A DNA stretch of 61,692 nucleotides, counting the filler, from Thermodesulfobacteriota bacterium (lineage in GTDB: Bacteria; DASVDK01), in assembly GCA_036381125.1 (NCBI GenBank). It is 4 parts of 4 records of this genome, joined end to end, with 100 filler letters (N's around TTAATTAATTAA, not from the genome) between each part and the next. Parts side by side here need not be neighbours in the genome. Positions count along the whole stretch, not along the records: positions 16,220 to 39,248 come from DASVDK010000302.1; 3 more parts are not named here. One strand, given 5' to 3'. The notes under the pieces were generated by a model. It was given only the letters and a program-made list of their open reading frames with translations. It was not told the origin of the DNA and ran no database searches. This document shows positions 35,312 to 39,348 of the stretch, in pieces. Position numbers and translations under genes: made by a program. Every line of letters starts with the position of its first letter. Position 1 is the stretch's first letter.

Positions 35312-35779
35312 TTACCTCCCGAAGAGACCGAGCGGCACCGGGACCGTGAAGAGGCGGAAGAAGACGAGGTACACGACGACGGTGGCGGCGAGCGACACCG
35401 CGACGATCTGCGCCGGGCGCCGCGCGCCGTTGGCCACCATCGTGCCGGCCATGATGAGGGGCGTGGCGAAGAGGCCGAGGACCGACCAGGCGGGGATCGC
35501 AAGGAGGATGACCGCGAGGGTCCCGTAGAATGCCTGCCGATCAGGGGGCTCGTCCTCGATGACCTCGTTCGCCTCGGCGGGAAGAAGGCGCGCCGACGCC
35601 ATGAGCAGCACCGAGAGGACGGCGAGGAAGCCGGCCAGCAGCTTGGGGAAGAAGGCCGTCCCGACCTGCTCGAAGAGCGCACCGGGCGGCAGGTTGTCGG
35701 CGGCCACGTAGAAGGCCGCCGCGATCGCGAGGAGGACCGCCCCGCTGCAGAGGCGTCAGAGACGCGTTCCGGGCTTCAT
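35312..35779 (-). CDS. tctB: TctB small permease with in-frame TGA at codon 8 (35756-35758): Sec readthrough, nonsense mutation or sequence error
   Basis: ATG overlaps the gntR stop (ATGA). Reads MKPGTRL*RLCSGAVLLAIAAAFYV..GTAFFP...LGLF.AT...F..LF.VP.P.G. Confidence 0.72.
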
Positions 35780-36477
35780 GCGTCGAGGTCCCCAGGTCGC
35801 CGGCGGCCCCATGAGGCATCGATGTACGCCGCCACCGCTCGACTGGTGGCGAGGACGTGCTCGCGCGCGAGCCGCTCGGCCTCGTCGGGGCGGCGGCCGC
35901 GGACGGCGTCGAGGATCGCGACGTGGCCGCGGTGCGCGGCCTCGAGGTGGCTGGTGAGGTCGACGGCGAGGTTTCGGAACCGCTGCGCGCGGTCCCAGAA
36001 GACGCGAAGCGTCACGAGCAGCTCCGGGTTGCCGCACTGCTCGTGGATGGCTCCGTGGAAGTCGCGATTGAGCGCGACGGACTCGCGGTAGGCTCCCGCG
36101 GCCAGGTGCGCCGCCATCCGGTCCACGATCGCCTCGAGGCGTCTCGCGAGGGATTCGTCCGCGTTCTCCGCCGCGAGCCGGGCGGCGAGCCCCTCGAGCA
36201 CGCTGCGGACCTGGTAGACCTGCCGGACCTCGCGGGCGGAGAAGGGGGCGACGATGGCGCCTCGGTTCTGGCGCCAGACGACGAGCCCGTCGGCCGCCAG
36301 CCGGATGAGCGCCTCACGGATCGGGGTGGCCGACACGCCGATCTCCTCGGCAAGGACGGCCGCCTTGAGGGGCGTTCCGGGGGTGAGGCGGTTGTCGACG
36401 ATCATGGCCCGCAGTCGCCGGTAGGCCACGTCCTGGGCAGAGAGGGGACCGTCGCTGTCTGGCCGCACCGAGGTCAA
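35776..36477 (-). CDS. GntR family (FCD) transcriptional regulator
   Basis: AYRRLR..I, LAEEIGVSATPIREAL, R.VLE, N.DFH...GN and H..I..A..H. Confidence 0.92.
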   Translation of the reverse strand: MTSVRPDSDGPLSAQDVAYRRLRAMIVDNRLTPGTPLKAAVLAEEIGVSATPIREALIRLAADGLVVWRQNRGAIVAPFSAREVRQVYQVRSVLEGLAARLAAENADESLARRLEAIVDRMAAHLAAGAYRESVALNRDFHGAIHEQCGNPELLVTLRVFWDRAQRFRNLAVDLTSHLEAAHRGHVAILDAVRGRRPDEAERLAREHVLATSRAVAAYIDASWGRRRPGDLDA

Positions 36478-36509
36478 GGGATCCCCCGTTGATCGGACAT
36501 TAGAACGTC

Positions 36510-36537
36510 TTTACATTCCTTGCGTATATTCTATAAT
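36510..36537 (+). promoter_or_regulatory. Sigma70-type promoter TTTACA-N16-TATAAT in the AT-rich divergent intergenic region
   Basis: Perfect TATAAT at 36532-36537 and AGGAGG at 36560-36565. An opposite-strand TTGACT at 36553-36558 may serve gntR. Confidence 0.7.
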
Positions 36538-36571
36538 CTCGCCCAGACGGCAAGTCAAGAGGAGGCCTGAC

Positions 36572-37336
36572 ATGGCCGACGTCAAGGTCTACGTCCGCCC
36601 CGGCTGATTCACCTGCGGGACAACGAAAGAGTTTCTTTCGTCCAACGGCATCCCGTTCGAGACCCGTGACGTCGAGCACGACGCCGAAGCGCGCGCGGAA
36701 CTCGCGGCGCTCGGGCTGAAGACCCTCCCGGTCACCGTCGTCGGCGACCAGGTCGTCGTCGGCTTCAACCGGCCCGCGCTCGCGGCGGCGCTCCGCCTGG
36801 GCGAGGGGGCGGGGAAGAAGCCCGCGGTCGACCGCGAGGTGCTGCTCGAGCGTTACCAGAGGATCTTCGGTGCCTTCTCACGCGCGGCGCGCCAGGTCCC
36901 CGACGACAGGCTCGTCACCTGGAAGTCGCCGGAGCGGGACCGGGACCTCAGGCAATTCCTCTTCCACGTCTACGATCGGCCGGACCTCATGCTCCAGGGG
37001 CTCGAGACCGGGGTCTACCGCTACGAGGACGTCCTCAAGGCCTACGACCGCGCGGAGGCGTACGAGACGACGTCCGCGCTCGTGGACAGGGGCGACGAGC
37101 TCATGGCCGGCGTGTACGCGTTCCTGCGCACCGCCACGCCGGAGAGGCTGGCCCAGCCGATCGACTCGTACCAGGGGGTGCTCGCCATCGGCGAACTCCT
37201 CACGCTCGCGCTCGGCCACGCCGCGCACCACCTGCGCCAGCTCTATCACTACTTCGGGATCCTGGGCATCACGCCAGATCGGCCGCTCGTCGACCGCGAC
37301 TTCGAGGGGATCGCGATGCCGGCGAAGCTCTTCTGA
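36572..37336 (+). CDS. Selenocysteine glutaredoxin (UFTC) fused to a DinB-like domain (254 aa; Sec12 at UGA 36605-36607)
   Basis: MADVKVYVRPG-U-FTCGTTKEFLSSNGIPFETRDV...KTLPVTVVGDQVVVGFN, in frame with ORF 36839-37336 (FLFHV, GHAAHHLRQL). Confidence 0.9.
36608..36655 (+). promoter_or_regulatory. Putative bacterial SECIS element
   Basis: ACGAAAGA-GTT-TCTTTCGT perfect 8-bp stem (36623-36641) with loop at +24..+26; AT-rich codons atypical for this genome. Confidence 0.8.
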
Positions 37337-37379
37337 CCCGGCTCCGCGCCGCCTGATCCGCCGCCGCCGGCGCGGGCGC

Positions 37380-38363
37380 TCAGGCCCGGAAGAGCGACAG
37401 GGCGAATCGGGCATCGGGGTCGACCCACTGGGCCTCGCCCTCGAACCCCGCGGCCCGACCCAGCGCGACGAGCTCGTCCGGCTGATACTTGTACGAGCTT
37501 TCCGTCCAGATCGTCTCGCCCGGCTCGAACGCGAACGAGCCGCCGGCGCCGGGGACCGAGACCCGCTGTCGCTGCCGGCTCACGAGGTGCATCTCCACCC
37601 GCGAGTGGCTCGCGTTCCAGACGGCTCGATGCTCGAACGCGTCGAGCGCGAAGTCGCCGCCCAGCTCGGCGTTGATCCTGACCAGCAGGTTCTTGTTGAA
37701 GGCGGCCGTCAACCCGAGCGGGTCGTCGTAGGCGATCCGCAGCTCGGCCTCCGGCTTGACGAGATCGGCCCCGAGGAGCAAGCCGTCCCCGGGCCGGAGG
37801 CCCTCGCGGATCACGCGCAGCAGGGCGAGCGCGTCGGGCGGCTCGAAGTTGCCGACGTTCGAGCCGAGGAAGAGGACCAGGGTTCGGTCGCCGGCAGGAC
37901 GAGACGGGACCTCGCGCATCGCGCACGCGTACGTGGCTCTGTGAGGGACGACGGAGACGTCGTCGAAGCGCGCGAGCCGCTCGGCCGCCGCGGCGAGCGC
38001 GCCGGCCGACACGTCGACCAGGTGGACCTCCAGGGCACGACCTCGGCCCCTGTTGGCCTCGACCACGATGGCCGTCTTCTCTCCACTGCCGGGGCCGAGG
38101 TCGGCGAGCGTGTCGCAGTGACCGAGCCGGGCGAGGGCCGCCGGGACGTGTCGGGTCAGGAGCCGGGTCTCGGCCCGGGTGATGTGGTACCAGGGCAGGC
38201 AGCAGATCGCGTCGAACAGCCTGGAGCCGAGCGCGTCGTAGAGGTACCGGGACTGCAGGCGCTTCGGCCGCGACCCCAGGTCCCGTCGGACGTCGCGGCC
38301 GAACGCGTGACGCTCTTCGGGGGCGTCGCCGGCGTCGCCGGGTCGCGGCACCACGGCAGCCAC
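37380..38363 (-). CDS. egtD: L-histidine N-alpha-methyltransferase (ergothioneine biosynthesis)
   Basis: YLYDALGSRLFDAIC.LP.Y..TR.E, DLGPGSGEK, FLGSNVGN, AYDDPLG.TAAFN and ETIWTESSYKY. Confidence 0.9.
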   Translation of the reverse strand: MAAVVPRPGDAGDAPEERHAFGRDVRRDLGSRPKRLQSRYLYDALGSRLFDAICCLPWYHITRAETRLLTRHVPAALARLGHCDTLADLGPGSGEKTAIVVEANRGRGRALEVHLVDVSAGALAAAAERLARFDDVSVVPHRATYACAMREVPSRPAGDRTLVLFLGSNVGNFEPPDALALLRVIREGLRPGDGLLLGADLVKPEAELRIAYDDPLGLTAAFNKNLLVRINAELGGDFALDAFEHRAVWNASHSRVEMHLVSRQRQRVSVPGAGGSFAFEPGETIWTESSYKYQPDELVALGRAAGFEGEAQWVDPDARFALSLFRA

Positions 38364-38364
38364 G

Positions 38365-39246
38365 TTACGTCCGCCCTCCGCCGGACGCCGTCGCCCCGGA
38401 CGCGACGCATCGGAAGGTCGCGTAGACGAAGGGATAGCGGGGCCGGAACCAGTTCCGGAAGGTCCGGCGCACCAGCGGCCCGGCCGTTGCCGGCGAGGCG
38501 CCCTTGAGGACGTAGTGCTCGCCGTCGAAGAAGTCGGCCGAGTACTCGGGGTAGGCCCACATGGGCCGAAAGCCCGGGAAGCCCTCGAAGGGCGTGCTCG
38601 TCCACTCCCAGCCGTTGCCCACGAGGTCGTGCACGCCCCAGGCGCTTCGCCCCGCGGGGAACGACCCCACCGGCACCGGGTCCCAGTGGCGGAAGTCGAA
38701 GTTGCCCCGGGCGGCGTCGGCCGGCGCGTCGCCCCACGGATGCGGCCGCTCCCCGCCCGACGGCGTCCCGTACGCGGCCCGGTGGAACTCGGCCTCGGTC
38801 GCTAGCCGCCGGCCCTGCCACCGCGCGTATGCCGTGGCCTCCGCGTGGCTGACGTACACCGGCCAGTGCGGCGGGAGCGGGACGGGCTCGAACAGGCCGC
38901 GCCAGTACCACCGGTCGTCGCGTCGCTCCCAGAACGGGGGATGCCGGTCCGGCTTCCCCTCGAGCCAGCGCCAGGCCTCGGCGTCCCACCACCGTGCGTC
39001 CCGGTAACCCTCCGCCTCGACGAAGGCGAGATACTCCGCGTTCGTGACGTTGTGCGCGTCGATCTCGAACTCGGCGACCTCGGTCCGGTGCGCGGGGAAC
39101 TCGTTGTCCCACCCGAAGGCCGTCCGTCCGGGCTCGGCTCCGAGCGTGGCGGCGCCCGCGGGGATGCGGACCGGTCCGGCCGGGGGCCGCTCGCCGCCGA
39201 CGACCGGGTCGGCGCCGGGCGGTCGTCGCTTCTGCTCGTAGGGGAG
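38365..39246 (-). CDS. egtB: EgtB/SUMF1-family sulfoxide synthase, C-terminal part (5'-truncated by the contig end)
   Basis: Frame open to the gap; FGWDNE, VTNAEY, PVYVSHAEA, GNGWEWT, YPEYSADFF and RNWF; adjacent to egtD. Confidence 0.82.
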   Translation of the reverse strand, partial: LPYEQKRRPPGADPVVGGERPPAGPVRIPAGAATLGAEPGRTAFGWDNEFPAHRTEVAEFEIDAHNVTNAEYLAFVEAEGYRDARWWDAEAWRWLEGKPDRHPPFWERRDDRWYWRGLFEPVPLPPHWPVYVSHAEATAYARWQGRRLATEAEFHRAAYGTPSGGERPHPWGDAPADAARGNFDFRHWDPVPVGSFPAGRSAWGVHDLVGNGWEWTSTPFEGFPGFRPMWAYPEYSADFFDGEHYVLKGASPATAGPLVRRTFRNWFRPRYPFVYATFRCVASGATASGGGRT

Positions 39247-39248
39247 GC

Positions 39249-39348
39249 NNNNNNNNNNNNNNNNNNNNNNNNNNNNNNNNNNNNNNNNNNNNTTAATTAA
39301 TTAANNNNNNNNNNNNNNNNNNNNNNNNNNNNNNNNNNNNNNNNNNNN
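39249..39348. other. Artificial contig linker
   Basis: N-run + TTAATTAATTAA + N-run. Confidence 0.97.

Follow-up and report, generated by a model that had tools for sequence, protein, structure and literature searches.

Glutaredoxin (Grx) selenoproteins, in which selenocysteine (Sec; U) forms part of the redox motif, have been listed since 2005, when ten 'Glutaredoxin' sequences from the Sargasso Sea were printed in supplement S1 of Zhang, Fomenko and Gladyshev (PMC1088965). The family was filed under COG0695/pfam00462 in the main text of that paper, as it was in that of the 2008 Global Ocean Sampling (GOS) survey (PMC2398784), in which it goes by the name 'Grx-like', and the main texts of both contain no occurrence of DinB or of fusion; likewise, the table of a 2026 review lists Grx (PF00462, UxxC) and does not list the DinB family. 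The paper on one stand-alone protein of this kind, cGrx1 of Clostridium oremlandii, gives its motif as U(or C)PXC and describes the protein as a native selenoprotein. Members of the DinB superfamily are, according to a review (PMC10950700), metal-dependent transferases of low-molecular-weight thiols. This report concerns a gene at positions 36572 to 37336 of a 61,692-nucleotide (nt) stretch of DNA from a Thermodesulfobacteriota bacterium (assembly GCA_036381125.1), the whole of which is referred to as the window. The gene is predicted to encode both types of domain in one chain: an N-terminal glutaredoxin-like domain with Sec at codon 12, followed by a DinB-type domain with a putative three-histidine metal site. 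The explanation as a whole, that the gene encodes a 254-residue selenoprotein which standard gene callers have shortened to a 165 amino acid (aa) 'DinB family protein', is considered highly likely, and there is very little doubt that the Sec codon and the full-length gene model are real.

An in-frame TGA in a conserved two-domain gene

The frame beginning at ATG 36572 stays open past codon 12 as far as a stop TGA at 37334-37336, and the only open reading frame (ORF) recovered from it by calling under table 11 is the 165-aa ORF from GTG 36839. The original prediction was that an N-terminus had been missed, and its components are all present in the sequence: a TATAAT promoter, an AGGAGG ribosome-binding site, the ATG at 36572 and, after 11 codons, a TGA, which is found as codon 12 at 36605-36607. 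The predicted promoter is sigma-70-like, with a -35 hexamer TTTACA (36510-36515) and a -10 hexamer TATAAT (36532-36537) separated by a 16-nt spacer. Together these agree with the consensus at 11 of 12 positions, and no other such site occurs within 36300-37500, a region that yielded a mean of 0.0 sites in 50 shuffles. The window is made up of several contigs, of which C302 occupies 16220-39248 and is followed by a run of N, and features are not linked across position 39249.

A scan of the genome collection found 16 loci of this family, 13 of them full length. The TGA lies within R-P-G-(TGA)-F-[TS]-C in all 13, or in 12 of 12 if one locus from a genome flagged as unpublished (L019, genome G025) is set aside, and the 11 codons on its N-terminal side (M..VKVY.RPG) are conserved in the same 13 of 13. 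The loci with TGA come from Thermodesulfobacteriota, Gemmatimonadetes, Candidatus Sulfotelmatobacter, Deltaproteobacteria, Binatia, Dehalococcoidia, Syntrophobacteraceae and 'Bacterium HR23', and a full-length alignment of the window gene with 12 homologous loci spans identities of 39-77%. The 'Bacterium HR23' locus L027 (2741-3492) has the TGA and the hairpin described below, and loses the frame in the DinB half through either a frameshift or an assembly error. The lineage of the source organism itself has been sampled very sparsely: of the species genomes searched, only two, both of one genus, fall within its phylum.

Database homologues of similar length start downstream of the redox motif in 26 of 26 cases, most of them inside the glutaredoxin domain, which is the pattern expected of a gene caller halting at an in-frame TGA. 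The gene and its relatives are truncated in every public call examined, these 26 near-length homologues and a 219-aa 'DinB family protein' among them, and the databases thereby lack the catalytic residue along with the greater part of one domain. Exhaustive searching of the representatives yielded 1595 hits at E ≤ 0.001, and 175 database proteins were sorted by regular expression: 38 are full-length forms with Q-P-G-C-[ST]-S-C, 18 possess CxxC but failed the DinB pattern or are fragments, and 117 have no motif at the N-terminus. The other two (P0061 and P0138), called under another code, have W printed at the Sec site.

The two-domain protein, with its Sec/Cys redox motif and predicted metal site, is widespread: a single metagenome scan, for which truncated representatives of a second, sister clade served as the seed, confirmed at least 539 relatives. 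Among the best 80 of these, the same codon is TGA in 59 and TGC or TGT in 21, the state of one locus that the pattern had missed (L035) having been assigned by eye. The expectation set out beforehand, that homologues would have either PG-C-xx-C or TGA at codon 12, is thus borne out, as TGA or Cys is found there within PG-[U/C]-x-x-C. A quick tree under LG+G4, comprising 72 Sec and 56 Cys rows (128 in all), from which the frameshifted L027 and the Cys representatives P0108, P0111 and P0122 were left out, requires at least eight changes of state, five of them forced by well-supported branches, and places the window gene in a 13-row clade consisting entirely of Sec forms (100% support in the Shimodaira-Hasegawa-like approximate likelihood ratio test, SH-aLRT). 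Having switched between Sec and Cys repeatedly, the family lends itself to natural comparisons of what selenium contributes to catalysis. As in bacterial selenoprotein genes, the in-frame TGA at codon 12 stands at a position that Cys occupies in homologues and is flanked on either side by conserved coding sequence; it very probably specifies Sec. One 111-aa fragment from a read-based catalogue (P0043), 55% identical to the window protein, has C at the Sec site in Y-Y-R-P-G-C-F-T-C; it is either a genuine Cys form in the otherwise all-Sec clade or a case of U printed as C.

Both domains are recognised by profile. The Pfam Glutaredoxin model (PF00462) matches residues 4-62 with 49.9 bits (cut-off 22.9; 3.8e-13) and DinB_2 (PF12867) matches residues 103-224 with 29.5 bits (cut-off 24.8; 1.1e-6). 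The motifs on which the fusion had originally been proposed were all located, namely KEFL, NGIPF, RDV, TLPV and VGFN in the Grx/NrdH-like part, and a DinB-type His set made up of FLFH at residues 129-132 and HAAHH at 216-220; the missed N-terminus, the Sec in U-x-x-C and the fusion to a three-His DinB-type domain are all supported as a gene model. An AlphaFold2 (AF2) model built from a 13-row alignment has, over the whole chain, a mean predicted local distance difference test score (pLDDT) of 92.9 and a predicted template modelling score (pTM) of 0.89. In this model the N-terminal part adopts a beta-alpha-beta-alpha-beta-beta-alpha thioredoxin fold with U12 just before the helix formed by residues 13-24, and the DinB half consists of four long helices (88-106, 126-146, 167-187 and 206-231), the second of which bears H132 and the last both H216 and H220. 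Foldseek matched the first half to cGrx1 (7c10; template modelling (TM) score 0.94 normalised to the target), NrdH, 4hs1 and 1h75, and the second to YfiT (1rxq), 3di5, DR0053 (6iz2), mycothiol-dependent maleylpyruvate isomerase (MDMPI; 2nsf) and 2p1a; neither a sequence search of the PDB nor Foldseek found a solved chain spanning both halves.

Across the alignments U/C12, C15, P53, G64, H132, H216 and H220 are invariant or nearly so, H219 is replaced by Gln in the second clade, and the invariant columns include no Cys in the DinB half. The N-terminal part accordingly has the attributes of a glutaredoxin, with a profile match, U12-F-T-C15 just ahead of helix 13-24, an invariant P53 and a matching fold, and the C-terminal part those of the DinB superfamily, with a profile match above cut-off, a four-helix bundle and a conserved His triad. 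Querying the ESM Atlas with the table-11 ORF brought up no clusters other than DinB and 'DinB/Glutaredoxin' and added nothing further, and NCBIfam holds no full-length model for either the Sec or the Cys form.

The downstream hairpin and the selenium machinery

Just beyond the TGA lies a candidate selenocysteine insertion sequence (SECIS), the hairpin ACGAAAGA-GTT-TCTTTCGT, which has an 8-bp stem and occupies nt 19-37 counted from the U of UGA. The spacing rule applied to bacterial SECIS elements is that of the bSECISearch model. The putative apical loop here consists of G27-U28-U29, and the structure is thus a stem-loop with a G in the loop, as in bacterial SECIS elements. Its exact 17-nt core, CGAAAGAGTTTCTTTCG at nt 20-36, is found in 56 of 71 unique Sec sequences as against 0 of 20 unique Cys sequences, and the longest local stem has a median of 7-8 pairs in the former and 4 in the latter (Mann-Whitney p = 1e-11). 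Conservation of the protein alone is not the source of the hairpin, because the Cys forms write the same K-E-F-L mostly with other codons (AAG GAA/GAG TTC/TTT CTG/CTC/CTT). Codon choice within the window gene is also distinctive: the GC content at third codon positions (GC3) is 0.94, and the only AAA, TTT and CTT of the gene lie inside the hairpin, these codons accounting for 0 of 7 Lys, 0 of 11 Phe and 0 of 30 Leu codons elsewhere in it. Five neighbouring genes use AAA for none of their 35 Lys codons and TTT for none of their 64 Phe codons, while 8 of their 191 Leu codons are CTT. The terminal TGA of the gene is followed by no such hairpin.

Sec-form loci without the common core have also been observed to carry hairpins of another kind. 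At L031-L034, L048, L051, L090, L091 and L096 these are different and longer, lying at nt 10-48 past the TGA, with tips such as GGAG-UAC-CUCU; they may represent a second SECIS type within one protein family.

The source assembly, which comprises 382 contigs and is 96% complete, contains selA, selB and selD. The last of these (contig C156:487-1425, locus L011) has an in-frame TGA of its own, between residues C-A-G and A-S-K-L, followed by a hairpin GGGUCC-GGC-GGACCU, which indicates that selD is itself a selenoprotein gene. More generally, selA is present in 13 of 13 genomes carrying the TGA form compared with 2 of 14 control genomes, and it lies directly downstream of the gene in four Sec-form metagenome loci (L057, L072, L079 and L089). 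As the gene's own stop is also TGA, the genetic code is not reassigned.

Several observations weigh against the reading of codon 12 as Sec and of the hairpin as its SECIS. No tRNA-Sec was found in the source assembly by Rfam, by ARAGORN on the whole genome or by BLAST with the tRNA-SeC of a relative: the Rfam search, which scored 150 of 612 candidates, had as its best match a tRNA-Ser at 46.4 bits (cut-off 47), and none of the 53 tRNAs reported by ARAGORN is SeC. A genome of the same genus does possess a tRNA-SeC (71.7 bits, anticodon TCA), and the DNA flanking it is 90% identical to contig C236 of the source assembly, in a match that ends 9 nt from the end of that contig; a gap in the assembly is therefore the simplest explanation, and it is plausible that the tRNA-Sec is hidden there. 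Covariation within the hairpin is weak, with 86.6% of cells paired compared with 86.0% after shuffling (40 of 500 shuffles reach 86.6%), as a consequence of how little the core varies. The pair 19-37 is formed in 30 of 71 Sec sequences (GC in 20, AU in 7 and GU in 3) and unpaired in 41, and 15 of the 71 are without the exact core, some having other hairpins. The 76-nt stretch past the UGA shows no folding advantage over shuffled sequences (z = 0.19), and an Rfam search of 36480-36800 found no bacterial SECIS family, its matches being at chance level (E > 2). Lastly, the neighbours of the gene are heterogeneous, and, many of the loci being close relatives, counts of those neighbours are not independent.

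Against this background three other accounts of the TGA can be considered. Were it a true stop, the real gene would be the 165-aa DinB protein from GTG 36839, with a non-coding frame or a leader peptide upstream, in agreement with ORF calling and with the public annotation of homologues such as the 219-aa 'DinB family protein'; this is very improbable, since it would require a complete but untranslated Grx domain, including the 11 codons ahead of the TGA, to be conserved at the amino acid level across phyla, since Cys homologues are translated over their whole length, and since the promoter and AGGAGG serve ATG 36572 rather than GTG 36839. A recent nonsense mutation in a CxxC Grx-DinB gene would take a single base change, from TGC or TGT to TGA, and Cys forms of the family do exist, but such a pseudogene would hardly share its TGA with 72 further loci (12 intact genome loci, L027 and 59 metagenome loci) and with a second copy in the same genome, retain an intact frame over the remainder of its length, or be accompanied by a dedicated hairpin whose core occurs in 56 of 71 Sec sequences and is missing from Cys forms; the chance that it is one is judged to be very slight. 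Scarcely any weight is given, similarly, to decoding of the UGA as Trp, Gly or Cys through a reassigned code or a suppressor. The W printed in two database gene calls is what such decoding would predict, but the gene ends in TGA and other table-11 ORFs here have strong Pfam matches, selA, selB and a Sec-type selD are present, and in alignment the site falls where a native selenoprotein glutaredoxin has its catalytic Sec.

Proposed mechanism and genomic surroundings

In the proposed mechanism, the UGA at codon 12 would be read as Sec by SelB and tRNA-Sec, directed by the 8-bp hairpin at nt 19-37 past the UGA, within the sequence that codes for T-K-E-F-L-S. The resulting protein would consist of a Grx/NrdH-like fold, in which U12-F-T-C15 lies where helix 1 begins, connected through a short linker to a DinB/YfiT-type bundle bearing H132, H216 and H220. 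Sec12 would attack as the nucleophile and be resolved by Cys15 to give a selenenylsulfide, as in glutaredoxins and thioredoxins; the DinB site, by analogy with YfiT, BstA and MST as described in PMC10950700, would bind a metal and a small substrate. At that site the Sec/Cys pair would reduce or de-conjugate a small, probably carboxylated, electrophile or thiol adduct, after which the oxidised UxxC would be reduced again by a cellular reductant. That a redox-active UxxC works jointly with the DinB site is a suggestion for and against which the case is about evenly balanced, and the best functional guess, a reductase or de-conjugating enzyme acting on a small electrophile or thiol adduct, might equally prove right or wrong. 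A bolder version, regarded as rather doubtful, would make the protein a self-contained, cofactor-free thiol enzyme of the DinB type, its own Sec replacing free glutathione, mycothiol or bacillithiol and attacking a carboxylated electrophile bound at the metal site formed by the three His, with Cys15 then releasing it. If this were true, the fusion would constitute an uncharacterised class of enzyme uniting selenium chemistry with a DinB metal centre, one that is common among bacteria of soil, freshwater and the sea and that has stayed hidden because its genes are systematically truncated.

The same gene could instead work by another mechanism, an alternative that is possible though on balance unlikely. 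On this account, the Grx part may be a tethered electron donor or redox switch for a DinB domain that is the sole catalyst, an arrangement for which the natural peroxiredoxin-glutaredoxin (Prx-Grx) fusion HI0572 (1nm3), which matches the Grx half, is a precedent; it sits poorly with the DinB domain, which has no conserved Cys for a glutaredoxin to reduce. Otherwise the Sec may be a covalent, non-redox nucleophile, for instance in the cis-trans isomerisation of an unsaturated acid. A low-molecular-weight thiol acts as the nucleophile of such a cis-trans isomerisation in MDMPI, the metal ligands of which are a His/Glu/His set. The DinB half has MDMPI as one of its structural matches, and genes concerned with organic acids recur nearby (GntR-FCD, Tct transporters, HpcH/HpaI aldolase, PrpD, cupins, MaoC and CoA-transferase). 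However, the predicted ligands here are three His, as in YfiT, and the invariance of the resolving Cys15 favours a redox cycle over plain nucleophilic catalysis.

The features of the gene are collected in Table 1, together with the GntR-FCD family regulator that diverges from it upstream, beyond which lie tctCBA. The genome contains a second Sec-form copy (contig C90:8169-8924, locus L117:3001-3756) of 251 aa, with the same TGA and hairpin core, that is 76% identical to the window protein and 91% identical to the orthologue from the same genus (L015); the closeness of these last two implies that the window's copy is the more diverged paralogue, or that the bin mixes two populations. Around the C90 copy are a divergent GntR-FCD regulator, an HpcH/HpaI aldolase, an MFS transporter and tctA, and the divergent GntR-FCD arrangement is found in L015 as well.

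Table 1. Positions of the gene, its signals and predicted sites, and the divergent regulator, in window coordinates
Feature	Position	Strand	Basis
Sigma-70-like promoter, TTTACA-16 nt-TATAAT	36510..36537	+	consensus match only
Shine-Dalgarno AGGAGG, 6 nt upstream of ATG 36572	36560..36565	+	direct sequence reading
Full coding frame, 254 residues and TGA stop, predicted Sec at codon 12	36572..37336	+	translation, full-length alignment
In-frame TGA at codon 12, predicted Sec U12, first residue of U-F-T-C	36605..36607	+	conservation, Sec/Cys exchange
Cys15, second (resolving) residue of UxxC	36614..36616	+	invariant in alignments A2 and A3
SECIS-like hairpin, encoding T-K-E-F-L-S	36623..36641	+	Sec-versus-Cys contrast, codon usage
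Glutaredoxin/NrdH-like thioredoxin-fold domain, residues 4-74, with cis-Pro P53 in TLPV, and VGFN	36581..36793	+	Pfam, PDB, Foldseek, AF2
DinB_2 four-helix-bundle domain, residues 88-254	36833..37333	+	Pfam, Foldseek, AF2
His132, first ligand of predicted three-His metal site	36965..36967	+	invariant in A1, A2 and A4; at least 90% in A3
His216-His220 (H-A-A-H-H), HxxxH pair of predicted metal site	37217..37231	+	H216 and H220 invariant in A1, A2 and A4
GTG start of table-11 ORF, giving truncated 165-aa 'DinB' protein	36839..36841	+	ORF call
Divergent GntR-FCD family regulator, sharing the promoter region with the gene	35776..36477	-	ORF/Pfam annotation

Two themes recur among the neighbours of the family, thiol/redox detoxification and organic-acid catabolism. 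At the 13 genome loci, a small VOC/glyoxalase gene lies directly upstream in six, with ispH before that in eight, and Tct genes are nearby in three. At 79 metagenome loci, for which 138 flanking ORFs were available, the corresponding, non-independent counts are 13 for a glutathione S-transferase (GST) gene upstream, 14 for tctC nearby and 6 for mnmA, with pyridine-nucleotide disulfide oxidoreductases at three, OsmC at two and DsbA at two.

Convergent with the gene on its downstream side, at 37380-39248 on the minus strand of the window, are genes for an EgtD-like histidine methyltransferase (Methyltransf_33, 2.7e-87) and an EgtB-like protein with an FGE-sulfatase domain, the latter cut by the contig end at 39248. 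A link with ergothioneine was considered and rejected: the egtD/egtB-like pair is suggestive but confined to the window, being found neither at L015 nor at the C90 paralogue.

Relationship to known systems

Cys-type GSTs and E. coli glutaredoxin 2 combine an N-terminal thioredoxin fold carrying a catalytic Cys with an all-helical substrate domain, a layout resembling that proposed here. Over the whole chain, though, Foldseek matches between the window protein and GSTs are weak, with TM scores of 0.32-0.34 and root mean square deviations (rmsd) of 11-15 A, which makes the likeness an analogy of design rather than homology; the helical domain of the window protein is a DinB bundle with a predicted metal site and not the C-terminal domain of a GST.

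The best NCBIfam matches to the N-terminal domain are the NrdH-redoxin and YruB-type families (TIGR02194 and TIGR02196), which have the same fold. Membership of these equivalogs was rejected, as the scores fall below the curated cut-offs (50.6 against 85.75 and 62 against 88.55 bits). The window protein has G-F-N-R-P where NrdH has SGFRP and shows no link to ribonucleotide reductase genes at its locus. Similarly rejected was assignment to the UXX-star glutaredoxin-like selenoproteins (NF041212 and relatives), a family whose name implies Sec three residues from the C-terminus: the match scores 45.3 bits, below the 66 required, and the protein ends in ...PAKLF with no Sec near its end.

For the C-terminal half, the closest systems are the DinB/YfiT superfamily proteins Bacillus subtilis YfiT (1rxq), Staphylococcus aureus BstA, Mycobacterium tuberculosis MST and MDMPI (2nsf), which share with it the four-helix bundle and the His triad. 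Foldseek hits to solved members have TM scores of 0.67-0.84 when normalised to the targets, with sequence identities of only 10-21%. The known enzymes of this superfamily use a free thiol, either bacillithiol (BSH) or mycothiol (MSH); none is known to contain Sec or to be fused to a redox domain.

Among solved structures, residues 3-74 are best matched by cGrx1 (7c10 and 7c12; E = 1.2e-12, 39% identity). In the 7c10 construct, where the catalytic Sec has been replaced by Cys, the first active-site Cys aligns with U12, and the two proteins have in common a VVVGF motif and the cis-Pro. By contrast with the window protein, cGrx1 is a stand-alone chain of 84 residues without a DinB domain, with U-P-H-C in place of U-F-T-C; its proposed client is MsrA.

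The nearest counterparts of the whole protein are the Sargasso Sea sequences of the 2005 supplement, eight of ten of which look like members of the window family, in a judgement of motifs made by eye rather than from a computed alignment. Seven of them start ...VFWQPH-U-TSC..., and the other starts ...THPG-U-FSC..., like the clade of the window gene; on the same reading by eye, the position of Sec and the UxxC motif agree with those of the window protein. Two of the eight are full length (~252 aa) and show, in the DinB half, the motifs P-x-R-x-R..HH, TYFG, ERTVWHSTQHxxQ and GLPL..W. The Sargasso proteins are marine, whereas the window's copy comes from a high-GC organism. Full-text literature searching for a DinB-linked selenoprotein or a DinB-Grx fusion, which did not extend to the supplements of other selenoproteome papers, returned nothing relevant, and both the DinB half and the systematic truncation of the family are unremarked in the texts searched. 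The novelty that the original prediction had implied is overstated, sequences that look like full-length members having already been printed as 'Glutaredoxin' selenoproteins in that supplement; judged by its motifs, the gene adds one more probable member to a selenoprotein family in print since 2005, and as such is real rather than new.

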